The translations under genes and the position numbers were made by a program. This document shows positions 7,827-62,097 of a stretch of DNA of 64,000 nucleotides, piece by piece. This DNA comes from a virus. The DNA lies in IMG/VR virus record IMGVR_UViG_3300045988_154277; one strand, 5' to 3'. How positions within the stretch are numbered: position 1 is the first letter of the stretch; every line of letters starts with the position of its first letter. Below the pieces are notes generated by a model. The model was not told the DNA's origin, did not search any database, and worked only from the letters and a program-made list of their open reading frames with translations.

Positions 7827-7847
7827 GTAATATATACGTGAAAAACG
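7827..7847 (-). promoter_or_regulatory. Early-type promoter P1 (minus-strand core TATATATTAC; plus strand GTAATATATACGTGAAAAACG)
   Basis: One of seven copies of the conserved motif. Always placed as gene-stop, hairpin, motif, next minus-strand gene. The core equals the reported phiKZ early consensus TATATTAC. Confidence 0.6.
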
Positions 7848-17449: not shown

Positions 17450-19347
17450 TCATTGGGTTGATCTCACCGGATACAACTGGTGCGGATGGCCTAATGTTGT
17501 TGTTATCATAGCGTTTGCTCGTTAGACAAACTATTCTCTACGTTTCCGTAGATGTTCGGACTATCTTTCAATCCTTATGACTAAGGACAACCGGTCTTTG
17601 GAACACACTTGTGTTCTACTCAGCGTTTCAGCATGATAGTCTCTGATCCTTCTTCCTGGTAACAGGAAGCTTGGAAGCTGATATCCCATTATTACTTCAT
17701 AAGAAGTCTGATCCTTAGCACCATGTGGATACATGGCTTTTATTTCAGCATAGATCATATCAATCATTCTTTCTGCTTTCGCGACTATCACGTTCATCCT
17801 TACGGATCCCGTTGTAGTTGATTGATCTCTTAGGGTATCCCAGCCGTTAACACGGTTTATGCAGCCACAGTGTTACCACTATAGCGCCCCCATACACACC
17901 AGTCATGTGTGAGAGGTAGAGCCAAGATACTTTCAACCACCAACTGAGACGGGTGTGCCTTGAGGAGTGCGACAGGCATATTCCGTCCACCTGTTGTCGA
18001 TTTGGTTTCTGTATTCTCCAGTGAGCGAAATCTCTTCGTGAGTACAGTCAGAAGACTATTGTCGTTGCAAATCGTTGGATTCGCACGGAACACGGAGTTC
18101 GCCATCATCCAGCTCTCTCCTTGAGAAGCTGTGGTGACGAATCGTTTCACCGTATCCGGTGTCAATCCTTCGTTCTTCGCATTGATCACTCCGAAAAGCT
18201 TCGTATTGATTGACGACACCAATGGTGCCATCAACTGACTCAACGAACCGATCTTCTTAGAGAACAAGTTCGTCGGTTCGTAACTGACGATCCACCGATC
18301 GATGTTGTAGAACACCTCTCGGAGAAGTTCGTAGATGCCGTTGACTTGGATGCCGATCGTAGCCAACTGATACTGTGCCGGTGGGTCCAGCAAAGTCGCA
18401 GTGGTCTCAAGATGCTTCTCTGCATTGTCGTAGAGCAGCTGAGCATTCGTAGTACTCGGATAGGTGTATTTGCCTAGCACGGTCTTGTAATAGACCGGGT
18501 GGGTCGCTATCAAATCACGTAATCCGAATCTCGTATACTCAGTGAGACACATCAGGTAAGATGCGATCACCCTTCTCTTGAAGAGATCGTCAAGACAGGA
18601 GTTGTGAACCTTAAGGTAGATATCTTCTCTGATCTCGATGTGAGAGTACTCGTTCGACTCTTCCATCTTCGGTACCAAGGAGATCTCTCCAGGCTGAAAC
18701 CCATAATACTGCATCGTCTTATCGAACGATAGTTCGACCAGATGATACAGGATGATTGGGGTAACACCAGCCTTCTTCCCGCGTCCTCTCTTTCCTTGAT
18801 GGATCTTCACTGTGGGTACGATCTCACGACATACTCTGCCGTCAGTCGTTGTGAAGACGAACTGCTCTGATCTTCTGAAAGTCAATGGTGCACGCATGAC
18901 TTTAATGATCAGACCATCTTGGATACGATGAAGACCGCCGCGCTCTACGATGGCGAACATCGGGAAATATTGCGTGTCGGATAGGATCACCGCTCCATGA
19001 TCCAGATAAGGGATACTGATGTGCAGTGGGTATTGCACATTTTCGAACTCGAAGATGAACTTCAACTGTTCGAATGAACTCTTCTGGATTTGGATCTTCT
19101 TCTTCAGGATCGTGTTGTTACGGATATACTCGATACGCTCGTCAGGAGTTAACCGTTGATACCCAATATAACGTAATCGACCTTTGAAAAGCTTTACTGA
19201 TTCTTGGAACATCACATCGAGATAATCAGGTATCTTCTTAATACTGTTCTCTCTGAAGTGAAGGAGGAAGTCGTCGTTGAAATCCGGGAGCAGATCACTT
19301 GCTCCGATCAGGACATTCCTCAGTACTGGATTGAAATGTTCATCCAC
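17450..19347 (-). CDS. RNAP beta subunit N-terminal fragment, interrupted by a group I intron (exon 1 19347..17905, exon 2 17506..17450)
   Basis: LRYIGYQRLTPDERIEYIRNNTILKKKIQ aligns to E. coli beta [43 protein letters not shown] aligns to the fork-loop GANMQRQAVP. Exon 1 ends on codon CAU (ends in U). The ORF-track reading frame runs on into the intron. Confidence 0.6.
17507..17904 (-). ncRNA. Group I intron A (about 398 nt, no ORF)
   Basis: Homologous to the introns at 40872..41286 and 59203..59606. Shares UGAAAUAAAAGC and the GAAA-capped P4/P5 region (GGUCGAAAGAC-like). Has P7-like GAUCAGAGACUA and a UUAGUC partner. Hairpins carry compensatory changes relative to copy B. Ends ...GCUAUG. 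Confidence 0.6.
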
Positions 19348-22469: not shown

Positions 22470-25400
22470 TTAGAGGTTGGTATCGAGCATCATCGATTGA
22501 AGGAGTTTACTTCCCACTACAGATGCTCGAGTACGACTATTCGGATCGATCGTATCCAGATCAGCTTCTCCGTTCTCTTCCAACATCCTGCGGAACTCGC
22601 TATACCCGTGGATGTTACCACCACGGATGTTCACCAATTCCTGCATCGTCTTGCTGAGTCCACGAGCAGCGAGGATCTGGATCTCCGGGTTCGTGATGGA
22701 ACAAGCGCGACTGTCACCAGTAACTTGCCCAGTCAACCCATCGATCGTCCGATCATTATCCGGAACTGAAATCTTCTCATCCAAGAACTGTTGTTGTCTT
22801 CGGATGGGGAGTTTCACGAACATATACTTGTTGTCGGTCAGATACTTACGACCAGTTGCACGGTCATACATCCAAACACGTTGGAAGAGATCCAACCCGA
22901 TCATATCACAAGCTTTCAGAAGATCTTCGTTCTGCAAGTTCACGATCATGTTGGGAGCGACGATGTGGAGCTGCCACTTGCCTTCCTTCATGTAGTTCAT
23001 GAACTGATCAAACTCTTTGTCATTCATCTGTCCTATGATCTGACGATACCGTTTGGAGTTCAGTCCGGACGGTTCCATCGTATCACAGAGCTTACAGATG
23101 TAGTCCAAGATCTCCTTCTTTTTCTGAGCGATCTTGGATGATGCGGTTGATGCTTCCATAGAAGAACCTAATTGTTCTGTTGACGATTGAGACTCCGAAT
23201 CAAAAGAAGTACATTCCAATGATTCGACAGCTGGTCCGAACTGTTTTACCATACTTGGATCAAACTTAGTTTCCCAAGTCACAGTGATCTTCTGTTTCGA
23301 AGTGTACTTCAATGGTTCATCATCCACATATCGACACTCACGTTTCGTATCTCCACCACCAAACGTTTTTAACTTAGACTTTACATCATCAGTCAGTTTG
23401 ATAGAGTAAAGATACCCAGTGGATTCACCATGTGTTTCTTTAAACGTCTTTGCGTTGTGATACACAGTGATGTGTTTTGGAATTGTATTAAGTTTGGAGA
23501 CGTCTTGTTTCCAAACATCATAACTCCAATGAATAGAACGATAACCGTGGTTCTCTTCTCCATACAAATCTTGTTTGTTTATGATGAAGATAGAAGCGAT
23601 CCCTTTCAGAGGAGAAAGGAAGATTGACTTCTTATATTGAGAAGCTCGTCCATAACCTTTCAGTTCTGTCAGATCGTTTGGAGATCCATGATAGAGTTCA
23701 TCACCCCATGTTTTCATCTGAGCAGAAGTTAGCTTTTCAGCTGACATCTTCAGCACATCAGTCTTCAAGACCATCAAGTACATCTTCTCTCTAGTTTCTA
23801 CAATCTTGAATCCCATAGACTCATACAGATGACACACCTTCTGGTTCGTCTTGTACGCACAGATGTAGATCTCAGTTGTGATTGGGTTGTGTTTCAGCAC
23901 ATATTGAATCGTAGCAGATACACTCTGCTTACCATAGCCCTTTCCCTGATACTTGGGGAAGATACCGAGATTAAACAAATCCACGGTGTTGTCTTTATAG
24001 AACATCACACCGATCGATCCGATCACCTCTGATCCATGCATCAACAAGAAGAACTGACGTCCTTTCTTCAGATCAGCTTTGACATCACTCGGAGTCCATT
24101 TCTTATAGTCATCTGGATCGTCGTCAATCAGATCAGCTGTATCTGTCACATACTTGACTTCTACCTGATTGGATAGATCCAGTTCCTTCAAAGTAATGGA
24201 ACTAGCTGGTAACGTCAGAGATTCAAGACTTATAGGTAACACTTCCATAGACACATGGACAACATCGCCTTCCAATTCCAGACTGGCTAAAGACTTAGAC
24301 ATCCTTTTTGGTTTCGGGGCTTTCCCTCCAGTCAGTTTTGGATTATGAACGTATTGTACATCCACATTGGTGTAAGTATTTGGTTGTATCCCATTAATAC
24401 TCAAATGATTTGGATCACCAGTGTATCTTAGGATAGTCTTCTTGTCTGATACTGTTTCCGAAAGAAAGTCTTGTGTACAGCGGTTTGTTGGAACTTTGTA
24501 AACATCGACCGACACAGTCTGCGTTGGCTTACAACGATATCTCCAATTAGGTTTTCCAATATCGTTGTATTCAACGATGATCAGAGAGTTGTGAAGATTG
24601 ACCTGTTTTGGTATAATGTTAAACAGAACAGTTCCACGTTTCATATTCCAAGTTGCAGTTTTAGCACCAAGCGCAACAGCATAATTGCTATCTGCACACA
24701 CTAGAATTCTATTCCCTACCTTAGGAAGATCCGTTCCACCTGCTGGAATACCAACGTAAACAGGTTTCCCCTTAACGTCAACCACTTCAACTTCGCCAGC
24801 CTGGACATTAGCTGCCTTTTCCTCTGACACCACGCAATCCTCAGGGATATCCAACGACTCAAAACCACGGAAGAACGCTTTCACGTTCTCACGTTCTTTC
24901 TTATCAACGATCTGATCGAACTGGTCTCCGGACCACTGCATGATATCCTCCATACGGGTTGAGAGGTTCGCTTCCTTGCCGGTATCAAGAACCAGACTGA
25001 TGATTTCACAATCTGTATCCTGACCGATACGGTGCACACGGTCAGATGCCTGCTGATACTCGATCGATCTCCAAGGTTTGTTCAGGAAAATCACTGTGTT
25101 GGCAGCCGTCAAGGTTGCTCCAGTACTCAACATCTTCAAAGATGCGATCAATGGATTCAACGACTGATCCTCTTGGAACCGTTTTACCGTGTTAGTCAGT
25201 TCAGAAGCTGTTTTACCGTATACAGCAAGTGGAGAATACCCTTCCTTCTGGAAGTAGTTATAAGCCAACTCGATCGTATCCACATAAGACGTGAATACAA
25301 CAGTCTTCTTCATGGCATCATCCACATACTGCTTCAGATCAGCAGCTTGCATCATCTCAGAGGTCATCTGCATACGGAGATGTGTCAATAAGGTACCGAT

Positions 25401-27623
25401 CACCTCTCCTTTGATCTTGAGAGGAAGGTACTTCACAACAGACTTCGACCAGATGAACTTCTTCTTGAGATCATCAGGAAGAGCAGGGATCAGAACGTCG
25501 CGTTCATACTGATTCGCCCAAACGATATCAGCGTTACCACGAGCATCAACGATATTCGAGTTGCGCAACTCGTCGATGATGTTCATATACCGTTGGAACT
25601 CAGGTTGATCACCGATACCAGGTTCATTCTGCAACCATTCGATCGCGTCTTCGAATGCTGTGATATACGCTGTGAGATTCTGTTGATAATAATCCTGTCG
25701 TTCTTTGACGAAGGTAATGATCTGTTTCTCCACTTGGGATACCGTATACTTCCATCCTGTTGACATACGGACAGAGACCGTTGTTTCTTTCTTCTCAGGA
25801 AGTGACAAGATATCCTTCGTAACACGAGTGATCATACGAGTGAGTCTTGCATTTAAGACGTCGTTTGCGATCGCCGTGTTGAAACCGAATGTCGCTTTGA
25901 AGATCGCACATGCTTCATCATCGAAGTAAGGATCCAAAACAGACATGATCGGGATGAGTTCGACTCCTGCGCACTTGATGGGCGTGCCACTGAGCAAGAG
26001 TAGATCTGCATTCTGATTGTATCTGGCAAGATCCAACAACAACTGTGTACGAAGAGACGAAGTTCTCAGGAAGTTATGAGACTCATCTACGATTACACCG
26101 AGGTTGTTGAGTTTGTTCTTGATCAAGAACTCTTTCACTTCTTCGATCCTCTCATAGTTCACGATGATCCATCGGGAGGATGTAGTGAGAGGACCTTTGG
26201 TATACCCAGCAACCCACACCTTCTGTTTTTGGTTGAAGAACTTAATCAGATGTGTGTTCCAAGTCTCCAACATCGTGTTCTTCGGACAGATGATAACGAC
26301 ATGTTCTTTCTTCAGAGCTGTCATCAACCCTAGAGCTGTGATCGTCTTACCAAGTCCTTGTTCGAAGGACAACAGATAACCTCTCAGGTGGTTCGTCGTC
26401 TTATTGGTTACATAGTTCTTGATGAACTCGATCTGATGCTCATAGAACTTGGCGTTGATCTCTCTATTGAGAACAGTCAGATCTGCGAATTCTGTCGGTT
26501 GAACAGCAGTACCTACCCAAGTATGACTTTTGATCGTATCGGTTAAGCTAACAGGGAATTGAAACTTATCCAAAAGATAGATGAGTTCCGGTATGAAGAA
26601 CTTATGGATACTGATCGTTCTCTTCTGAGCGAAGAAGAACCGGATACCGATCACCTTGAACAGGTGTTCCAGTTTCGTAGTTTTATACTCTTTGCGGAGT
26701 TTGTTGAAGAACTGGATCACCGGAAAGTTCCGTATCGTGTAATACATCCCCTCTTCCACAACAGGATCGAACAACCCTTCTGAAGATATCACAATAGCTT
26801 CAGTAGATGTGGTTTCCTCTCCGACCTGCGAAGTCACACTCATCTTAAGCTTAGGCGGATCCGGGATCGGCTCGCTGCTCTGAACATAGAGTTTAGATGG
26901 GATCCACATCAAGCAAGCTTCCAACACTTGAGTATATCTCGGACCATAAGACCAACGTTTGTCTTTGTTCTTCAGCCACCAGTCTTTCGCGGTATCACCC
27001 ATCTCGATACCAACAGCAGCCCAGTCAGCTACCATTTCACCGAGAGCCATCAGGATCGCAGGATGCCCTCCCTTATCCTTATATGCATCCTTCAGTTTTT
27101 CATCTGAGATCACCCACTGTTCTTTCTCAGGATCCGGACGATGCATATAGTTCTCAGGGTGATGGTCGTTGAGTTGGTGGTGCTTAGGCCATTCAATCTC
27201 TTCATAGACTCGCTTTGCTTCTGGAGAGATCTCATAGAGATCCTTATACTTATAAAGCGGAGCATTCAGTGCGAAAGACGCAACATGTTCGTTCCCTTGA
27301 AGCTTATCGTAATCATGCTGTTGGACTTTGGCGATGAACCGATCGAAATATCCTCCGAACTGGAAGAACTCGCGAAGGTAGTTCGCGCAGATCTTCACAT
27401 TCTCAACGTGGTTCTTCGTCCTTTGAATATGGTAACGTAAGATCCACTGAGCCAATTCAGCATCCGACAGAACAGTGTTGTTCTTCGTGATACAGGACTC
27501 GATGATCTTTAATACAGTTCTGTTAGGATCACACTCGATCAGTACTTGACCGCCTTTTTTAGACAGGTTGTTATAGTACATCGTATCGAATGGGACCTGT
27601 TTGAAATTGAGTTGGTCACTCAT
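22470..27623 (-). CDS. Giant multidomain protein (1717 aa): unknown N-terminal region, SNF2-family helicase, GNAT acetyltransferase, unknown C-terminal region
   Basis: SNF2 motifs LSFEQGLGKTITALG (motif I), VIVDESHNF (motif II), LLLSGTPIKCAG (motif III) and QASDRVHRIGQDTD (motif VI). The GNAT signature is LGIFPKYQGKGYGKQ...HLYESMGFKIVE. Confidence 0.7.
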   Translation of the reverse strand: MSDQLNFKQVPFDTMYYNNLSKKGGQVLIECDPNRTVLKIIESCITKNNTVLSDAELAQWILRYHIQRTKNHVENVKICANYLREFFQFGGYFDRFIAKVQQHDYDKLQGNEHVASFALNAPLYKYKDLYEISPEAKRVYEEIEWPKHHQLNDHHPENYMHRPDPEKEQWVISDEKLKDAYKDKGGHPAILMALGEMVADWAAVGIEMGDTAKDWWLKNKDKRWSYGPRYTQVLEACLMWIPSKLYVQSSEPIPDPPKLKMSVTSQVGEETTSTEAIVISSEGLFDPVVEEGMYYTIRNFPVIQFFNKLRKEYKTTKLEHLFKVIGIRFFFAQKRTISIHKFFIPELIYLLDKFQFPVSLTDTIKSHTWVGTAVQPTEFADLTVLNREINAKFYEHQIEFIKNYVTNKTTNHLRGYLLSFEQGLGKTITALGLMTALKKEHVVIICPKNTMLETWNTHLIKFFNQKQKVWVAGYTKGPLTTSSRWIIVNYERIEEVKEFLIKNKLNNLGVIVDESHNFLRTSSLRTQLLLDLARYNQNADLLLLSGTPIKCAGVELIPIMSVLDPYFDDEACAIFKATFGFNTAIANDVLNARLTRMITRVTKDILSLPEKKETTVSVRMSTGWKYTVSQVEKQIITFVKERQDYYQQNLTAYITAFEDAIEWLQNEPGIGDQPEFQRYMNIIDELRNSNIVDARGNADIVWANQYERDVLIPALPDDLKKKFIWSKSVVKYLPLKIKGEVIGTLLTHLRMQMTSEMMQAADLKQYVDDAMKKTVVFTSYVDTIELAYNYFQKEGYSPLAVYGKTASELTNTVKRFQEDQSLNPLIASLKMLSTGATLTAANTVIFLNKPWRSIEYQQASDRVHRIGQDTDCEIISLVLDTGKEANLSTRMEDIMQWSGDQFDQIVDKKERENVKAFFRGFESLDIPEDCVVSEEKAANVQAGEVEVVDVKGKPVYVGIPAGGTDLPKVGNRILVCADSNYAVALGAKTATWNMKRGTVLFNIIPKQVNLHNSLIIVEYNDIGKPNWRYRCKPTQTVSVDVYKVPTNRCTQDFLSETVSDKKTILRYTGDPNHLSINGIQPNTYTNVDVQYVHNPKLTGGKAPKPKRMSKSLASLELEGDVVHVSMEVLPISLESLTLPASSITLKELDLSNQVEVKYVTDTADLIDDDPDDYKKWTPSDVKADLKKGRQFFLLMHGSEVIGSIGVMFYKDNTVDLFNLGIFPKYQGKGYGKQSVSATIQYVLKHNPITTEIYICAYKTNQKVCHLYESMGFKIVETREKMYLMVLKTDVLKMSAEKLTSAQMKTWGDELYHGSPNDLTELKGYGRASQYKKSIFLSPLKGIASIFIINKQDLYGEENHGYRSIHWSYDVWKQDVSKLNTIPKHITVYHNAKTFKETHGESTGYLYSIKLTDDVKSKLKTFGGGDTKRECRYVDDEPLKYTSKQKITVTWETKFDPSMVKQFGPAVESLECTSFDSESQSSTEQLGSSMEASTASSKIAQKKKEILDYICKLCDTMEPSGLNSKRYRQIIGQMNDKEFDQFMNYMKEGKWQLHIVAPNMIVNLQNEDLLKACDMIGLDLFQRVWMYDRATGRKYLTDNKYMFVKLPIRRQQQFLDEKISVPDNDRTIDGLTGQVTGDSRACSITNPEIQILAARGLSKTMQELVNIRGGNIHGYSEFRRMLEENGEADLDTIDPNSRTRASVVGSKLLQSMMLDTNL

Positions 27624-37014: not shown

Positions 37015-38931
37015 TCAATCTAAGATACCGAAGAACGGACCGAACAGACCGATCGGTCGAGCGATGTTCGAAGTCTGAGGATCGTTGAAATAATCCTTGA
37101 GTCGTTCGAATGCAAGCTCCATCGACACAGTTCGGTTGCTGATCACATCTTCCAACTTACCGAACGTCACATGATAGGGATCGGTTACCGTACAGAGTTG
37201 ATAGTTCTGCTGGTTGTCGATCACCAAGTTGTGAAGCACGGTCTCCAGGTGGAAGATCGGGATCGAAGATTTTCGCCAGACGATCTCGCAGAAATCGTTC
37301 AACGCGTGAGGAACACTGTTATAGTTCCCTATCGTAGCGGTCAGGAAGGTCGCTACGCTCTTGGTATACGTGATCATATCATCGTTCATGATGATGAATT
37401 TGAACACGTCCTGCTTCGCATCGAACCCTGCCATCGGTACGATCACACCATCTTCGTCGAACTCCAACTTGTTGTAGTTGGTTCTCATGTGGTCCAGGAA
37501 CGCCTCACTCAGATACGGTACGAACGCATCGTACTCCATCTGGATCGTCTCCACCAGTTCCCCATCTTTCAACAGCTCCAGGTAAGACACCTTACTGAAC
37601 GACTCTGCGATGGGAAGTGTATCCAGGTTCAAGTCAACGATCGGCCCAAGCGCATCACTCGGGATCCGGATCTGATACTTATGGATATGTTTCCCCCACT
37701 TCTGATCGAACAGGATGGAGTTGTTGTTCTTGATGAAATACCTTGCAGCACTTTCCGTCAAGTTGTAGATGAGCGAGTTGGTGTTGATCAGGTGTTTCGC
37801 CGACAACACTTTCTGTGATACAGTGGATGATACCTTCGTAGAGCACAGCAGTCCGATATGGATCCCATGTGGAAGATACTTGATCAACCGATCCTTCCCA
37901 TATCCAGCACAGTGTTCACACATCCCGTCCAGATGGTTGCACCCGAACTGAGAGATCATGTTCACTGTTTGACCAACGTATCGATCGATGACGTTCATGT
38001 TGCTGAGAGCGACCCTTCGTCCATCATCGATGATGATCTTGTTGATGAAGTTCTTGGCATACTCTGGTTTGATCGTCATCGGGATCACGTTGTGATCGGA
38101 TCCACAATTTCCAGGATGAACCGTCTGTACCGTGGAACAACCGAGTCTCATCTTCCTTCCGAAATACTGAGACTTCTTGATCACATCTCGTGAGAAGAAG
38201 ATGGACTTCTTCGCTGAGAGGGATTCGGTTGCGAACTCCACCGGTGATTTCAACCCACTGAAGGATGAGGATGAGATCACGAACTTCCGCATCGTATCAT
38301 CGATGTCCGACCGAGGTCCATATGCCAGCAGCATCTGTGGGATCTGGTTGGTCTTCAGAACACCAGCTTGGATGTAGTGATACAGCACGTTGTTCGGAGT
38401 CTTCGGATCTTTCAAGATCTTCAGAAGTTCCTTCCCATCCTGTCTCAGCTGAGCTTCCGCAACCTGAGTACCCCACTTCGGATCGTAGACCTTATCAGCC
38501 AGTTCCTTGATCGGAGGATACTCCAACAGTTGCGTCAAGCTCAGACCATCGATAGATGGCATGTACTCACCCAACTCCGTTGTGATGAAGTTGTAGATCC
38601 TCGATACATTCCGGAAGATCTTGTGGACCATGAGCATGTGGTCCACGTCTGGACGCTCATCCAAAAACCGATCATAGATGATACTGTAGATCTTACTGCT
38701 ACTATCGCTGGAGATACTCTTGATATTGAACGTCTCCTTGATCGTTGGTAAGATCCCGAAGTACATCAACGGTTCCCAGTACAGGATATTCAGGATCGCC
38801 ATGCGTGTAGGCATCTGAACACTCTTGTTGTCTCCAAGAACCAGTTTACACATCCCACGATCTTGATGTGTCTGACGAAGTTGATCGGCATAACCGGCTT
38901 GGGTATACTGATCTGGTGTTAATACAAGCAT
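37015..38931 (-). CDS. RNAP beta-prime subunit C-terminal fragment (638 aa)
   Basis: NVLYHYIQAGVLKT aligns to bridge-helix NVLQYFISTHGARKG. GCSTVQTVHPGNCG aligns to trigger-loop GEPGTQLTMRTFHIGG. Start overlaps the stop of the beta C-terminal gene (ATGA). Confidence 0.5.
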   Translation of the reverse strand: MLVLTPDQYTQAGYADQLRQTHQDRGMCKLVLGDNKSVQMPTRMAILNILYWEPLMYFGILPTIKETFNIKSISSDSSSKIYSIIYDRFLDERPDVDHMLMVHKIFRNVSRIYNFITTELGEYMPSIDGLSLTQLLEYPPIKELADKVYDPKWGTQVAEAQLRQDGKELLKILKDPKTPNNVLYHYIQAGVLKTNQIPQMLLAYGPRSDIDDTMRKFVISSSSFSGLKSPVEFATESLSAKKSIFFSRDVIKKSQYFGRKMRLGCSTVQTVHPGNCGSDHNVIPMTIKPEYAKNFINKIIIDDGRRVALSNMNVIDRYVGQTVNMISQFGCNHLDGMCEHCAGYGKDRLIKYLPHGIHIGLLCSTKVSSTVSQKVLSAKHLINTNSLIYNLTESAARYFIKNNNSILFDQKWGKHIHKYQIRIPSDALGPIVDLNLDTLPIAESFSKVSYLELLKDGELVETIQMEYDAFVPYLSEAFLDHMRTNYNKLEFDEDGVIVPMAGFDAKQDVFKFIIMNDDMITYTKSVATFLTATIGNYNSVPHALNDFCEIVWRKSSIPIFHLETVLHNLVIDNQQNYQLCTVTDPYHVTFGKLEDVISNRTVSMELAFERLKDYFNDPQTSNIARPIGLFGPFFGILD

Positions 38932-41388
38932 TATACTTCCTCCTCGACTTCTTCGACCTCGAACCCGACGGCTGCCAGCTGGTGTTTGAAGATCCCGATG
39001 TTACTGGCACCATCGATCATCTCTTCTGTAGACATCCCGAGATCGTAGATCCCGCTGGGTTTATCAGCCGTCAGCAACAGATACTGGAGTCGATCGATCG
39101 CTGCAGGAGAGTTGCTGTATGTACACAGTAATCTCACAGCCATCTTCGCACCACAACACATCGTAAGAATAGCGGTCTCATCCTCACCATATCGGATCGG
39201 TGTTTGACCGAACATACTCTGTGCTTTCAGACTCTTGCTGTTGGGTTTGATCGGAGATAGGAACTGACTCTGATATCCGAACTCGATGCAGTTCAACTGG
39301 TCGATCGGGATCTTACCGAGCAGGTGGATATAGAGTTCTCCACAGAGAGCATCCGTACAGGTCTTCACCTGTTTCTTACCACCTTTCCCATCTTTGGCGT
39401 TGTAAGTAACCGGAGTTCTCCGGATCCCATACTTCTTCGCCAATCGATCGATCATCTCAGGACTGATGCTGTCACAGAACGGAGGGATCACCATAAAGAT
39501 CCCGTGTTTCTTGCAGCTGTCCACGAACTCATCTTCATAGTTCTTGGTCTTCTCACGAACATACTGCGCGAACACAGGTCTTACCTCTTGGAGATAATCG
39601 AGGATATACTCATATTGAGCTTCGATCGAACTCCACTGTTGAGTCCAGAGATTCCGCACAACCACATCAGAGACATAGTTGATATATTGTTCGTAATACT
39701 GACCACCATTCAGACGGTTGAACGGAGATGCACCTGTGATCAAGATACTGGCTCTGGTTCCATCCTCCATCGTCGGCATATCTTCATCTTCCCAGATGTC
39801 CGAGATCACACCTTTGTTACCAGCGTTACCAACCAGCTTGTAACCACGGTCGACTTCCCGCTGATAAGCATAAGTGATCTTAACTCGGATGAAGTCAACC
39901 GGTTCCTTCTTATTCATCAGGAACATGGACTTCCCACCTCTCCAGTAACTCCAACCTTTACAGCTGGTTACCAGAGTGTTGAACGCAGGAGTAACCTCAC
40001 GTCCTTCTCGTTTCATCTGCTCATACACATCAACGATAGCCGTCCAATAGGTGTGATACTGATCCTGATACTGCATCAGCTGGGCGTATGCTGTATCAGA
40101 ACTCAGCTCTGGATACTTCTTGTGGTTCGTGAAAATCTCAACATCGATCACAGTTGCACCGGCTTCTGCTCGATAGAGATCATCGTGGAACTCCTCTGCA
40201 CGACGGAGCTTCTCATCGGTCATATCCGTTAAGAACGAACTCTTGTTCTGTTTCCGGAATCCGATCAGGATCCCATCTTCACGGATCTGTTCACCGATTT
40301 CAGGGAACGTCTTATACTCGTTCTCCCCACCGTACAGATTCAGAGGGATGTCGTCGATCTTGACATCGATCGTCACACTGTCGATCACCGTGTGTGAGAG
40401 TTGTTTCTGAAGGCTTCTGCTGATCACGAATGCGTCTTCTGTGGTAGCCCACAGAGGAAGATATGCGACGTTGGCATTCACTCCCATCTTGTACAACCCA
40501 TCTTCGTGATTCGGAGATGTAACGAACTTCGTTGTTTGACTGACCAGACGTCCTTCTTGCAGCTGGTCAAAGTTCATCTGTTTGTTGATGTATCCGAATC
40601 CGCTATACAGTTCGGTATAACTGTCGACTTCGAAATACCCAACTTTACCATCTTCTGCTCCGATGTAGATCACAGTGAGACTGGGGTTGTTCTTGATCTT
40701 CTGAAGACCTGCGTTGACTCGGAACTTCGGGATCACAGCGACGATCTGTACGTCCTGATCTCGAGTACTTTTGTCAAATTCATATTTTCCGATCTTCGTC
40801 TCGTAGCCGGACTGGATCCGTGCTGTCTGACACCCATCCACCACCATCATCTGCGGGGCATTTGAGGAGAGCATTCTTTATGTTCAACCGAGTGCGTTAC
40901 TTCTCGGCCCGCAGCATTACCTGCTCCGCTTATAGATTTGCTATAAGAACAGACTATATCTCACTCCTTACTGAGTAAGGAGAACCTCCATTTCCACCCA
41001 CTTGGGTGTACATTTAGTCGTTGATCTTTCTTCTCAGAGAGAAGCTTAGAAGCTGATTTCCCATTGTTCGTTATCACACGATAACGACATCCCTTAGCAC
41101 CGTGTTGTTACACACAGCTTTTATTTCAGCATAGGACATTCTAATCATTCTTTCTGTCTTTCGACCGCGTTCACGCTTACCCTTGCGAGTTACGTTGTAG
41201 CTGATTAGACTTTAGTGGATCCCAGACCGTTAGAAGGTTGATTTCACCACTACATTACTGTAATAGCGCCCAATGTTGTTTAGGCCACGTTGCGAACTGA
41301 TGAACTGTAAGAAAGGTGAAAGGAGCGCAGGCGTTCCTGTCAATTCCGGTCTTACATTTAGATCTGATACAAATTGCGATGTCTTCAC
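38931..41388 (-). CDS. RNAP beta subunit C-terminal fragment, spliced (exon 1 about 41388..41287, exon 2 40871..38931)
   Basis: GNAGNKGVISDIWEDEDMPTMEDGTRASILITGASPFNRLNGGQYYEQ aligns to beta GRHGNKGVISKI...PSRMNIGQ. QSMFGQTPIRYGEDETAIL aligns to GGQRFGEMEVWAL. The listed ATG at 40874 is the last three nt of the intron. Exon 1 has a GTG start with AGGAGG 7 nt upstream and ends on CGU. Confidence 0.65.
40872..41286 (-). ncRNA. Group I intron B (about 415 nt, no ORF)
   Basis: Contains P7/P8/P7-prime as UCAACGACUAAAUG / CACCCAAGUGGGUG / GAUAUAGUCU. The P4/P5 region GCGGUCGAAAGACAGAAAG is near-identical to the beta-prime intron. P9 hairpins are present. Ends ...AAGAAUG. Confidence 0.65.
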
Positions 41389-41449
41389 ATTGATTCCTCC
41401 TAGTTTGGGTGTTATAGTTTCCAATGTTATGACTCAACATACTCAGATA

Positions 41450-41463
41450 GTAATATATACTCA
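41450..41463 (-). promoter_or_regulatory. Early-type promoter P5 (core TATATATTAC) driving the intron-containing beta-C gene
   Basis: Motif GTAATATATACTC sits about 60 nt upstream of the exon 1 start. The plus-strand gene 41482 also begins 20 nt to its right, so orientation here is ambiguous. Confidence 0.45.
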
Positions 41464-57686: not shown

Positions 57687-57696
57687 CATGGTATGC
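57687..57696 (+). promoter_or_regulatory. Candidate second-class promoter element CATGGTATGC, 33 nt upstream of the beta-prime ATG
   Basis: See 27661..27670. Confidence 0.35.
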
Positions 57697-57729
57697 ACTC
57701 TGATATACACTACACTGAAGGAGGTATTT

Positions 57730-59786
57730 ATGGCTTTAGATCCAGTACGCATCTGGCTGATGGATGTGCCTAAATTCATACGAGAGAATAAATGTCAACC
57801 TGTAACATCCGTCTTCATCCGTGAGACCACAACGAATGAATTTAAACACGATGGGTTGTTCTCAGAAGACATCTTCGGTCAGATCAATACTCCGGAGCGG
57901 TTGATCCGGTTCGGATATGTCGATCTTCGGACGAAGATCCTACATCCGCTCATCTACATCGATATCGTGAAGCTGAAGGCTTTCTATGGAGAGATCATGG
58001 CTCGGAAAGCTTATGCCGTGTTCAATCCAGAGACCAAAGAGTTCATTCGTGCATCGGAAGAAGACGAAGATGCTGATACAGGGTATCAGTTTTTCATGAG
58101 TCATTTGGATGATTTGAAGTTCGAGAAGAACAAGTCCTTGAAACACAACGAGATGGTTGATGTGATCGAGCGACACCAAGGCAAGTTGACATTGGAACAA
58201 TGCCTTGTGATGCCAGCTGGATTACGAGACCTTAGAGAAGACGAAGGTAAACCAGCTGCAGATAGTATCAACAAACTCTACTCTTCTCTGATCAACTACA
58301 CACTGGCTCTTCCCACTACCAAGACTACGTCTGATATTTATGACAATGTCAGGTTCTCGATCCAGAAGAAAGTCTCTGAGATCTATCAGTATCTATTCGA
58401 TATGATCGAAGGGAAGTTCGGGTTCTTCCAGAGGAAGTACGGTTCTCGTAACCTTGCATTGGGTACTCGTAATGTGGTATCCACAGCATCCATGGCTGCG
58501 TTATCACCAGATGATCCTCAGTATCTGAAAATGGATGAGATCAAGATCCCACTCTTCCAGTTATGCAAGATGTTCACTCCGTTGATCATCTACAACATCC
58601 GGATGCTATTCCTGAACGAAGTGTTCCATATCACATCGGACCAGGTTGCTTTGATCGATCCAGAAACCAATAACTTGGTCTACCAGCCGATCGATGAGGA
58701 TGAGAAGAGTCGGTTCCTCTCATCGGAAGGGATCGAGAAGATGATCGATCTTTTCAGGGATCCTGAGTTCCGGTTCACTCCTGTTGTGGTATACAACGAA
58801 GAGGGCAAAGGATATTACCTCTACATGGTCTACGATGATACGGAAGTGATCTACTTGACGAGAAGCGTCAGTGAAGTGATCAACAAGATCAAGGATAAAG
58901 TAGGTGTCTACGATCCTCAGAAACTGAGACCTCTCACTTATGCTGAGATGTTCTACATCGCAGCGTATCGTGCTACTTACGACAAGACTTCATTGATCAC
59001 ACGATATCCTGCCATCGAAGTAGGATCTGAAGTACCGAATCGTGTACATCTGATCTCAACGAACCCTGCAAGGAAGATCAATCTGTTCTCTACGATGGAT
59101 GATGATAACTGGATCATGCTTCCAGAGTATCCGATCATCAACAATACCTTTGTGGATAGTCTGATCCCGCATCCACAGATCTTAGGAGGGTTAGGGATGG
59201 ATTCGCTAAACAGTCGAAGTCCCGCTATCGGGTAACCGGTGGTGACAAGAAAGTGAATTGCTGGAAACATCTAAGAGCTAGTTTGGCTACAGCGTGATCC
59301 GAAAGGATGAATGCGATATGCGGTCGAAAGACAGAAAAAACAAACTAGATGACCTATGGTGAAATAAAAGCTTGTATGTACCACACCAACATACAGGTCC
59401 TAAAGGTTGATGCTTCTATATGAAGCGGAACAATGTGCAATCAGCAGCTAAGCTTATAGATAACTCTCTGAGTCGCTATGAGAAAGTTCATCGACTAGGT
59501 GCTCCCACCCGAGCGATTGGGTGGATGGTATAGTCAGGCCGCTAATGAAGATTAGTGGGTAAACGTATGTAAGTTATTGATATTCAATGAGTTACAACGG
59601 AAGATGTTTGATGGCGACACAGCCTCGTCCAATGGTGTATTGAGCAAACAAGCCAACCAAGAAGTCAATGAGTATTTGGATTCAATAGGACGTTACATCC
59701 ACAGTAACGGAAAATTGATGCACGGTACCACTGACTTGATCAAATTGACGATCTTCAACTTATCGAGAGATCCTGTTCTCGTTTAA
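57730..59786 (+). CDS. RNAP beta-prime subunit N-terminal fragment, interrupted by a group I intron (exon 1 57730..59202, exon 2 59607..59786; about 550 aa spliced)
   Basis: RBS AGGAGG 7 nt before the ATG at 57730. FKHDGLFSEDIFGQ aligns to PERDGLFCARIFGP. LVMPAGLRDLREDEGKPAADSINKLYSSLINYTLAL aligns to [39 protein letters not shown]. Joining ...GLGMD (exon 1, ends in U) to FDGDTASS... (exon 2) recreates the catalytic NADFDGD motif. Exon 2 continues HSNGKLMHGTTDLIKLTIFNLSRD, matching [25 protein letters not shown]. Confidence 0.7.
59203..59606 (+). ncRNA. Group I intron in the beta-prime gene (about 404 nt, no ORF)
   Basis: P7/P8/P7-prime present as UCGACUAGG / CCCACCCGAGCGAUUGGGUGG / GGUAUAGUCAGG, matching the phage group I R/S consensus. 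GAAA-capped helices AUCCGAAAGGAU and GGUCGAAAGAC. P9 is CGCUAAU-GAAG-AUUAGUG. The 5-prime exon ends in U and the intron ends in G (AAGAUG). Confidence 0.75.
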
Positions 59787-59799
59787 AACAAAAGAAGAA

Positions 59800-59835
59800 C
59801 TAAGGAGGGATAGGACCAACCCTATCCCTCCTTAG
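59800..59835 (-). terminator. Terminator hairpin (14-bp stem ctaaggagggatag) followed by UUCUUCUUUUGUUUU
   Basis: After stop 59838. It also lies 14 nt downstream of beta-prime exon 2 on the other strand, so it may act bidirectionally. Confidence 0.65.
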
Positions 59836-59837
59836 TA

Positions 59838-60164
59838 TTAGTACAGGTCCTCTTCCTCTTTTTGGATCTGTATTTCATCGTCCATCAACCCTTCGACTAG
59901 TTCGATGATCTCTTCATCATCTTCCGGCATACCAGTTAGATACCGTTTCTGAACGAAAGATCCACCACACCAATCGACTGTCCATTCAGCTTTTACTTCA
60001 GTCCGATCATCACCCAAGAGGTTGGTGATGATACACAGACTCCAAGCACCACGTGTGTTCTCATGTGGTATTTCGATGGAGCCTTCTGCTCTACGAACAT
60101 CTCCGGCTTCTGGATGATGCATCGTGAGCTCGTTGTAATCAACTTTGGTTTGGTACTTGGACAT
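59838..60164 (-). CDS. Acidic hypothetical protein (108 aa)
   Basis: ORF. Confidence 0.5.
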   Translation of the reverse strand: MSKYQTKVDYNELTMHHPEAGDVRRAEGSIEIPHENTRGAWSLCIITNLLGDDRTEVKAEWTVDWCGGSFVQKRYLTGMPEDDEEIIELVEGLMDDEIQIQKEEEDLY

Positions 60165-60165
60165 A

Positions 60166-61059
60166 TCAACTCTCCAGGTTGGAGTTGAGGATCTTGTGAC
60201 ACAGATCCAACCGGCTGTTCAACATCCTCAGGTGGTTTTCGATAGCTGAGGTGAAATCGATCCGTTTCAGAGCATCGTGCATGTAGATGGCTGTCAGCTC
60301 CATAAATCCCACATCATCGAGTTGGAAATCGGTGATGGAAACACCGTTGATCCGTACGGTTTCCACCTTGGTATGGAACTTCTGGGAAGTTCCATCGTAA
60401 CACACATAAACATTCAGAAGAACGGATTTGATGTGTGGATAAACACCGATGCCTGTCAGATCTACTTCAATTTCGTAGATCGGTGTTGGTGACTGATTGG
60501 GGACACCACTCAGATTGTAGATGATGTTGTTGATTTTGATCCTCTTCCTGAGAGCATCCGGAAGTTTGGTCACATCCTCTTGGTTGCATTCATTTTCTTT
60601 CATGGCAGCTATGCCTTTCTCTGGTTGTTCCATTTTGGTGTTCTTGTAATACTGAACGATTCTTTCAGCGATGTCTTCCAACAATTTGTTGAAGTCATAA
60701 TCTGTGTTGTTGATCGTTGTGTGATTCGTGACATAGTAAGGAGATCGTAAGAAGGTATCGTACGGTGTTTTGTCAATCGATAACCTCCATGTGATATTTG
60801 ACGTATCGATGTTACGTGGTGTATCACCTTCGATTCCTAAGAACCCGATGCGAACATCCACATCTTGGTTCATCTTTGTTGGAACATCGATCGATTGTGG
60901 CTGTTTGCGACCGACTGTGCTGTGTTGATAGACCAACATGTCTTTCTTGGTGGTATAGATCACATCTATGATAGTCTTGTTATAGGTGTGATCGTCGTTA
61001 TATTCCGTGTTCACAACCACGAACTTAATCGGTCCGTTATTCGGTTGGTAAGTTTTCAT
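60166..61059 (-). CDS. Hypothetical protein (297 aa)
   Basis: ORF, coupled to its neighbour. Confidence 0.5.
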   Translation of the reverse strand: MKTYQPNNGPIKFVVVNTEYNDDHTYNKTIIDVIYTTKKDMLVYQHSTVGRKQPQSIDVPTKMNQDVDVRIGFLGIEGDTPRNIDTSNITWRLSIDKTPYDTFLRSPYYVTNHTTINNTDYDFNKLLEDIAERIVQYYKNTKMEQPEKGIAAMKENECNQEDVTKLPDALRKRIKINNIIYNLSGVPNQSPTPIYEIEVDLTGIGVYPHIKSVLLNVYVCYDGTSQKFHTKVETVRINGVSITDFQLDDVGFMELTAIYMHDALKRIDFTSAIENHLRMLNSRLDLCHKILNSNLES

Positions 61060-62002
61060 AATGATTCTCCTTAAATGGGTTTAACACTTCTACGCGATTG
61101 TACAGTTCGTTGATGTACGACGGATCTGTGATGCGAAGTACCGTGGGCGCATCTTGTTCGACAGTCTGTTTGGTTGGTGAACAAAGACGATCCAACATTC
61201 CGTATTGTGTGATGTAGGTGGCTTCGAAGAAGAGAACGTACAACTGTATCAGTGTCTTCGCAGACACTGATACATCTTTGTATGTCTCGAAGGTCGGCCC
61301 ATCGATTACATACGGACGGAACAGAGTGTTGATGAGATGCTTTGATTCTCCAGACAGAGAATTAGCTTCGATTCCACCCAGACTGAGTGGACTGATGCGG
61401 ATACAGTCTTTTTCGTAAGATACAAATACGGATCCGATAGTGATGTGCCGTAGTATCTGGCTTACAATACGGAAGTCCACATGTCCTCCATTCTTGGCAA
61501 ATCCAGCATCTTCAATCACCACGTGGAATGGTGTATGAAAGATCGTAAGATACGAATCCTTCGGGTTGGGCAGTATTGTGTTCAGCTCTCGTACATAGAT
61601 CGGAAGTTGATCGAACGGTATGCGATAATGAGCTTTGTGTTTTGCATCATATCCGTACTGTTCGATGAACTCTGCTGTTTTGTGAAACAGGTTGTTCAGT
61701 ATAGATGGTGTAACGAGTAAGTTTGGAAAAACAACATTGTCGAATGAACTGACATAACACAGATTATCACCTCTATCATTGTCGAGATACACATCGATAG
61801 CGATGAATGGAGCATTGGGTGCCGGTTGGACCTTCAGCAACATGATTCGACCGATTGTCAGCTCATTGGTTATGATGTCATACACACAAACCAATTCTTT
61901 CAGGTTCGGCATGAGTTGATGTTGTCTCAATGCATAAGTGTCGTTCTTAACGAACGTCACGTTTCCGACGACCATTTCGGTTGTCAATTCTACTTTAGTC
62001 AT
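61037..62002 (-). CDS. Hypothetical protein (321 aa)
   Basis: ORF. Confidence 0.5.
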   Translation of the reverse strand: MTKVELTTEMVVGNVTFVKNDTYALRQHQLMPNLKELVCVYDIITNELTIGRIMLLKVQPAPNAPFIAIDVYLDNDRGDNLCYVSSFDNVVFPNLLVTPSILNNLFHKTAEFIEQYGYDAKHKAHYRIPFDQLPIYVRELNTILPNPKDSYLTIFHTPFHVVIEDAGFAKNGGHVDFRIVSQILRHITIGSVFVSYEKDCIRISPLSLGGIEANSLSGESKHLINTLFRPYVIDGPTFETYKDVSVSAKTLIQLYVLFFEATYITQYGMLDRLCSPTKQTVEQDAPTVLRITDPSYINELYNRVEVLNPFKENHYENLPTE

Positions 62003-62097
62003 GATTGTATCCTTCTTCGTTGTTAGTTGAAATAGAGTCTATAAGTGTACGGTATACCGTACACTTATAGTTCTCAGTTGGTTAGATTTCGTTGGGT

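Follow-up and report, generated by a model that had tools for sequence, protein, structure and literature searches.

A compact ORF-less group I intron very probably interrupts the non-virion RNA polymerase beta-C gene of a distant phiKZ-like jumbo phage

This study concerns the gene for the beta-C subunit of the non-virion RNA polymerase (RNAP) in IMG/VR record IMGVR_UViG_3300045988_154277 and the group I intron that very probably interrupts it; the window is the whole analysed stretch of 64,000 nt, to which all coordinates refer. Judged by its sequence, the region is part of the genome of a distant phiKZ-like jumbo phage. A megablast comparison of the beta-C locus with GenBank phages gave 0 matches, and the GenBank phage relatives of its main open reading frame (ORF) appear at the protein level only, as beta-like subunits of phiKZ-type phages with 26–29% identity. 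This ORF (38931..40874, minus strand, 647 aa) begins with MLSSNAPQ, as had been stated in an earlier reading of this DNA (hereafter the original prediction), and contains the Pfam domain RNA_pol_Rpb2_6 (PF00562). In the PDB, the predicted spliced product of the gene matches 7ogp_C (PHIKZ071, the gp71-73 subunit of the phiKZ non-virion polymerase) over residues 23–677 with E=5e-56, and its family profile match is phrog_3295 (1e-123). Downstream of beta-C lie the adjoining gene for a gp74-like subunit (phrog_3015) and then a helicase, an order identical to that in PhiPA3. On full-length homology, with the domain and gene order fitting, the host gene is assigned as non-virion RNAP beta-C, the homologue of phiKZ gp71-73.

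Upstream of the 647-aa ORF, on the same strand, a Shine-Dalgarno sequence AGGAGG can be read directly at 41396..41401, separated by a 7-nt spacer from a GTG start codon at 41388; the short ORF with this start and ribosome-binding site had been correctly described in the original prediction. In the spliced model, exon 1 (41282..41388, minus strand), placed by the alignment of homologues and by the gene call in the intron-less relative L002, comprises the GTG start, 35 codons in all, and 2 nt (MKTSQFVSDLNVRPELTGTPALLSPFLQFISSQRG + CU). It is followed by the 406-nt intron (40876..41281, minus strand), which is recognised by Rfam and delimited by the intron-less allele, starts with AAAC and ends with AAAG, its terminal G being at 40876. 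Exon 2 (38931..40875, minus strand) consists of A + AUG CUC ... up to the stop codon and carries the RNA_pol_Rpb2_6 domain and the match to 7ogp_C. The ATG at 40874-40872, with which the 647-aa ORF opens, is accordingly the codon of an internal methionine, Met37, inside exon 2. The predicted spliced product has 683 aa, with the exon-1 peptide PELTGTPALLSPFLQFISSQR and a junction-spanning tryptic peptide GLMLSSNAPQMMVVDGCQTAR, and the short upstream exon would supply the true N-terminus of beta-C.

These exon and intron bounds are given by the intron-less relatives, which fix the junction. The relative P0001, on a 269.5-kb contig, has an uninterrupted protein of 683 aa, equal in length to the spliced model, with 96% identity at 100% coverage; across the junction it reads ...FISSQRGLMLSSNAPQ..., seen in the alignment as PFLQFISSQRGLMLSSNAPQMMVVDG. 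At the DNA level, the alignment of the window with L002 (the locus of P0001) has a clean 406-nt gap with flanks aligning on both sides: the window reads ...CAACGTGGCCT [406 nt] AATGCTCTCC... and L002 reads ...CAGCGTGGACTCATGCTCTCC..., both encoding RGLMLS. The gene call in L002 uses the same GTG start, and AGGAGG is kept there. The comparison with intron-less relatives that the original prediction had suggested thus confirms a precise 406-nt insertion (P0001/L002).

The protein family agrees with this placement. The exon-1 peptide aligns N-terminally with 20 homologues and with phiKZ gp71, the pattern SSQR-x-x-M is present in 20/20 aligned homologues, and the N-terminal alignment of the beta-C family shows no variation at S31, R34 and M37. 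When exon 1 is included, the match to phrog_3295 starts at profile position 9 and not at position 35, and the score rises to 227.3 bits from the 205.1 bits obtained with no exon 1. The N-terminal profile of beta-C also matches bacterial beta without gaps (Thermus residues 536–606, E=1.5e-5; E. coli residues 657–709, E=0.016), and by this ungapped alignment S31, R34, L36 and M37 are equivalent to D675, R678, L680 and M681 of E. coli beta. The insertion point lies within the Leu codon matching E. coli beta L680, in the conserved motif ...PFLEHDDANRALM....

On sequence alone the junction could slide by up to 2 nt, the intron and exon 2 both starting with AA; among these positions, a U before the 5' splice site together with a terminal intron G is found only at the junction given here. 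The 5' exon ends in U (41282) and the intron ends in G (40876), and all three copies of this intron in the window, which are described below, are alike in these splice-site bases. The internal guide sequence CAUUGGGC (41268..41275, minus strand), read from the sequence, accounts for both sides of the junction. In P1, guide UUGGGC pairs perfectly with exon-1 GCCU plus intron AA, with a U.G wobble at the splice site, and in P10, guide CAUU pairs with exon-2 AAUG. The guides of the other two copies fit their own exons (AUGG.GGG with CCU / CCAU; CGAA.GUCC with GGAU / UUUG), and the same layout in these copies provides independent support for all three junctions.

The remaining RNA anatomy is that of a group I intron. 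In permissive mode, Rfam model RF00028 (Intron_gpI) matches 40929..41292 on the minus strand with 36.5 bits and E=2e-7, the whole model being covered. The R element GAUCAACGACUAAAUG (41011..41026, minus strand) contains the 5' strand of P7, GACUA, and the S element GAGAUAUAGUCUG (40950..40962, minus strand) contains its 3' strand, UAGUC. The P8 hairpin is CUCCUUACUCAGUAAGGAG (40964..40982, minus strand), in both the Rfam alignment and the minimum-energy fold, and the hairpins P9, P9.1 and P9.2 (40888..40947, minus strand) come from the minimum-energy fold. Upstream of P8 stands a further hairpin, CACCCAAGUGGGUG (40995..41008, minus strand). It lies between the P7 5' strand and the P3 3' strand and is therefore read as a P7.1/P7.2-type insertion, of the P7.2 type by position, as it aligns with the second of two hairpins found at the same place in relatives; the beta-C copy has one such P7-to-P3' hairpin, as opposed to two in the beta-N copy and in most relatives. 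Of the elements named in the original prediction, the R and S strings and P9 were recovered here, whereas its P8 label had been put on CACCCAAGUGGGUG.

The minimum-energy fold recovers P1, P2, P3, P8, P9, P9.1 and P9.2 with z=-2.8 relative to shuffled sequence. In an RNAalifold analysis of 20 homologues, 35 of the 46 predicted pairs, from P3 to P6, have compensatory changes; P7 covaries in relatives (GACUA/UAGUC to GAUCA/UGAUC and GAUUA/UAAUC), and so do P7.1 and P7.2. The longest stop-free stretch in the beta-C intron is 48 aa, and thus it is ORF-less. The family is widespread: a conserved 18-mer of the intron core occurs in >115 phage contigs in IMG/VR, and nhmmer found 138 related intron segments over the loci fetched.

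Phage introns of subgroup IA2 include T4 td, nrdB and sunY and the introns of Twort and SPO1. The beta-C intron resembles them in its guide for P1 and P10, in a P2 capped by a GNRA-type loop and in P9.1/P9.2, as well as in its insertion into a conserved motif of an essential enzyme gene and in an exon-1 frame that enters the intron and stops there. Between P7 and P3', where the subgroup has the two extra hairpins P7.1 and P7.2, the beta-C intron has one; it also falls below the Rfam gathering score and has no endonuclease ORF. Taken together, it is very probable that the beta-C gene is interrupted by a compact ORF-less group I intron of the phage IA type and that its transcript is spliced into a message for 683 aa. 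That this happens in vivo we infer from evidence that is computational throughout.

The expected course of the reaction can be outlined. The beta-C gene would be transcribed from an early-type promoter, with translation starting at GTG 41388. In the pre-mRNA, exon-1 GCCU would pair with guide GGGC, placing U 41282 in the U.G wobble of P1, and free guanosine would attack after this splice-site U. Guide CAUU would then pair with exon-2 AAUG (P10), and the 3' end of exon 1 would attack after the terminal G 40876, joining the exons. The predicted joined message is ...CGU GGC CUA AUG CUC..., with the end of exon 1, ...TCGCAACGTGGCCT, joined to AATGCTCTCCTCAAATG..., and the product would be a 683-aa protein containing ...FISSQRGLMLSSNAPQ....

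Some observations weigh against this interpretation. A scan with Rfam at the gathering score (50 bits) returned nothing in the window, the beta-C copy reaching 36.5; the shortfall coincides with the additional P7.2 hairpin and a long insert in the region of P5. P4 of the beta-C copy has one U.C mismatch at a position that is G-C in 18/20 aligned homologues. In addition, long-read transcriptomics of phiKZ gave no sign, in the conditions examined, that its predicted introns are spliced (PMC10914365).

If splicing does not take place, the insertion could be an inactive remnant, with beta-C made as a 647-aa protein from the internal ATG and the upstream ORF yielding a separate 50-aa peptide, in which translation continues from exon 1 into the intron, or no useful product. 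The 647-aa ORF does have an ATG, and automated callers choose the same or a nearby start in the relatives P0042 and P0003. This ATG is preceded by no Shine-Dalgarno sequence (GAACAUAAAGAAUG), whereas the GTG has AGGAGG, and the 36 residues that would be missing hold the invariant S31 and R34 of a motif common to cellular beta; no intron-less homologue lacks them, nor does phiKZ gp71. Neither the ribozyme core nor the two guide pairings are disrupted, and the divergence from the 97%-identical relative is about the same in the intron as in the exons (3.2% vs 2.6%). We therefore consider a remnant very unlikely. An assembly artefact or chimera has a practically negligible probability: the same insertion is present at the same site in two independent assemblies, L008 (IMG/VR, 97% identity) and L118 (ENA, 80% identity), and two paralogous introns elsewhere in the window speak against it as well.

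A real intron with other borders has also to be weighed. The original prediction placed the intron at 41286..40872 (415 nt), with splicing after CGU 41287 and after AUG 40872, so that the ATG would form the last three intron bases and the product would read FISSQR-LSSNAPQ. Here too a U precedes the 5' site, a G ends the intron and the frame is kept, and the Rfam alignment places P1 in the register of this junction. In that register P1 has 3 mismatches in 9 pairs, however, and the minimum-energy fold chooses the alternative with 6 contiguous pairs; nor does a comparable P10 pairing exist. The resulting protein would lack Gly-Leu-Met relative to 20/20 homologues, all reading SSQR-x-x-M and including the 96%-identical intron-less allele, and with these residues would go the invariant Met37; its score against phrog_3295 is 214.2 bits, 13 bits lower than with the junction given here. 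This placement is thus extremely unlikely, its borders being 5 and 4 nt off those of 41281..40876, and the ATG belongs to exon 2. The idea that an intron ends in AUG does hold for another copy, that in the beta-prime gene, where the last three bases are AUG (59604-59606).

A search of the window with a hidden Markov model (HMM) of the three copies recovers these and no others, at ~17490-17913 (minus strand), 40876-41281 (minus strand) and 59203-59606 (plus strand). The three ORF-less paralogues are 66–68% identical, the core being conserved, and their host genes are three RNAP subunit genes spanning both phage polymerases. The claim that a third homologous copy makes beta-C a two-exon gene is supported by the three paralogues, the Rfam match (E=2e-7) and the precise insertion.

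The 404-nt plus-strand copy (59203-59606) interrupts the gene for the N-terminal beta-prime subunit of the virion polymerase, a homologue of phiKZ gp180 identified via the GenBank annotation of 201phi2-1 gp275; phmmer of this host protein against the PDB gave no match. In Rfam permissive mode, Intron_gpI matches 59198..59557 (plus strand) with 38.9 bits. Exon 1 ends at 59202 and exon 2 starts at 59607, giving the junction GMD|FDGD within a catalytic motif and a second exon of 59 codons. Because the intron splits the gene, the called ORF 57688..59235 is truncated. In the relative P0195 (263,594-bp contig), the beta-prime N protein has an in-frame insertion of ~196 aa within DFDG^D (…GMDFDGNCLVGSTRV…VVVYDTASS…). 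The insertion resembles an intein, and its place is nearly that of the intron in the window; several other beta-prime homologues of 900–970 aa may be similar.

The 424-nt minus-strand copy (17490-17913) lies in the gene for non-virion RNAP beta-N, a homologue of phiKZ gp123 and of the AR9 beta-N chain, where exon 1 ends at 17914 and exon 2, of 37 codons, starts at 17489. This copy is not matched by Rfam even in permissive mode, yet it is 68% identical to the beta-C copy by blastn. The intron-less allele P0102 (515 aa, 98% identical) reads ...ESILALP|PSAPVVSGE... and puts the junction at ILALP|PSAPVV, not after PSQL as originally proposed. Two further candidate junctions, ...ALPL+YDNNNIR... in beta-N and ...GMD+MFDGD... 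in beta-prime, are ruled out by intron-less homologues. The beta-N intron contains a 78-aa ORF with an ATG start (17561..17797).

It had also been proposed that the exon-1 peptide of beta-C is paralogous to the end of beta-N (PALLSPFLQF against PVALLKAHPSQL), so that both introns would occupy a homologous site in two beta-derived genes. When the profiles of the two peptides are compared with hhalign, the probability is 0.4% and E=0.14. The C-terminus of beta-N aligns to the HPSxLGR... segment of AR9 beta-N, ...LHPSYLGRLGLTSTSAGDPGASGSLTPFLE, which we take to correspond to HPTHYGRVCPIETPEG... of E. coli beta; the E. coli fragment used was confirmed to be residues 548–594. A profile search of the PDB with the beta-N C-terminus returned chance matches only, and its direct hhalign comparison with E. 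coli beta 548–594 was not significant (probability 0.1%), the single aligned stretch being in the expected register. With the direct match not significant, the equivalence of the beta-N tail to residues 548–594 rests on the AR9 alignment and gene order. The match to the AR9 segment puts this tail further upstream in beta than the head of beta-C, an order that has to hold in the beta fold irrespective of which residues are exactly equivalent. The claim of a homologous site in paralogues fails because one host gene encodes the N half and the other the C half of the same subunit, beta, and the introns sit in different motifs.

The beta-C intron is carried by the window, by L008 (97% identity over 10.6 kb) and by L118 (80% identity), a contig that begins within the intron. 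P0001 (96% aa identity), P0002 and P0004-P0006 lack it, and the contigs of P0003 and P0042 end at or inside it. The other two introns are polymorphic as well: P0196 and P0198 carry the beta-prime intron, and P0193 and P0102 are without theirs. None of the three copies has an endonuclease ORF, and six ORFs neighbouring the introns, searched for a homing endonuclease, gave no Pfam match at E<=0.01.

At least two further related introns (L055, L065) were observed in IMG/VR UViG_3300045988_142450, a near-identical 197.7-kb relative that shares the introns of the window. As they lie elsewhere in the genome of this relative, the lineage carries five or more copies of the intron family.

All three introns are found near the boundaries at which the polymerase genes are split: the beta-N gene ends 37 codons beyond its intron, the beta-C gene starts 36 codons ahead of its intron, and the beta-prime N gene runs on for 59 codons after its intron. 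A link between intron activity and the origin of the split polymerase genes of jumbo phages has been proposed (PMC7598289). It can be imagined that the introns colonised three sites without homology to one another within the lineage, for instance through reverse splicing after retargeting of the guide, in connection with the origin of the split genes. Alternatively, splicing might set the time at which polymerase is made, in a phage whose transcription and translation are kept apart. We regard these ideas as unlikely. The nearness may simply reflect conserved motifs near the split points.

Introns in the polymerase genes of phiKZ-like phages are already established, whereas we found no description of the site occupied in the window, which is without an endonuclease. 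The closest described case is the virion RNAP beta gene of PhiPA3 (gp211/209), where a group I intron with the HNH homing endonuclease gp210 lies directly after the equivalent of E. coli D675; gp210 is a nicking enzyme for which an advantage in phage-phage competition has been shown (Birkholz et al. 2024, PMC11620839). In both cases a phiKZ-like jumbo phage has a beta-like RNAP gene interrupted by a group I intron, and the conserved motif concerned is the same. The two introns differ in position, the PhiPA3 site being five codons upstream of the L680-codon site of the window by ungapped alignment, in the host polymerase, virion in PhiPA3 and non-virion in the window, and in coding content, the window intron being ORF-less.

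In phiKZ itself, introns with endonucleases have been predicted at gp56, gp72 and gp179 (PMC10914365), and the purified non-virion polymerase contains a fused gp71-73 polypeptide (PMC4666361). This is the orthologous host gene, with its intron predicted to carry the endonuclease gp72, which the copy in the window lacks. Part of the intervening sequence of PhiPA3 gene 065 matches the intron model built from the window (nhmmer E=4e-15, model positions 223–361); that insertion is mid-gene, whereas the one in the window is 36 codons from the start. Many relatives have beta-C fragments of ~400 aa, which may point to mid-gene interruptions in them, and 201phi2-1 gp273/274 are annotated as interrupted.

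The main use of these results is in annotation, and knowledge of this kind of intron is unchanged by them. When called as a 647-aa ORF, beta-C loses 36 N-terminal residues in the phage of the window and in its intron-carrying relatives, including part of a catalytic-cleft motif common to cellular RNA polymerases. Public gene calls contain the same error: P0003 (653 aa) starts inside the intron, and P0042 is called with 647 aa. The three compact endonuclease-free introns join the known theme of mobile introns in the RNAP genes of phiKZ-like phages, and their variable presence among near-identical genomes offers a natural system for studying how ORF-less introns move and retarget.

The early-promoter-like motif noted above the first exon in the original prediction was also found: TATATTAC (extended form gagtaTATATTACta) occupies 41450..41457 on the minus strand, 61 nt upstream of the GTG, and is kept in the intron-less relative L002. 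The window has 7 copies of TATATTAC, all on the minus strand (positions 7827, 15479, 20572, 29850, 33301, 41450 and 56485), compared with 1.07 expected, and 0/100 shuffles reached 7; most copies share the context tttcacgtaTATATTACtta. The early promoters of jumbo phages are AT-rich motifs of ~10 nt upstream of early operons, including the non-virion polymerase genes (PMC7598289, PMC10914365). A promoter role for TATATTAC is proposed because it fits this description, and TATATTAC within tttcacgtaTATATTACtta is likely to be the early promoter consensus of the phage.

Other features of the window are reported as separate observations. Just after the stop codon of the second beta-prime exon, between convergent genes, there is a near-perfect palindromic hairpin, CTAAGGAGGGATAGG-ACCAAC-CCTATCCCTCCTTAG (59784-59852), which gave spurious microRNA matches in Rfam on both strands and is probably a bidirectional terminator. 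About 950 nt (61073-62019), covering most of a 321-aa ORF (61037..62002, minus strand), are absent from the 93%-identical relative L016, where the alignment jumps from 61072 to 62020; this ORF has no Pfam match and may be a mobile gene. Finally, a 1717-aa ORF (22470-27623, minus strand) combines a helicase-like part (phrog_62), an acetyltransferase-like part and, at residues 1500–1717, a match to 'RNA polymerase beta subunit' (phrog_3233); it may be an unusual fusion or may hide further intervening sequences.

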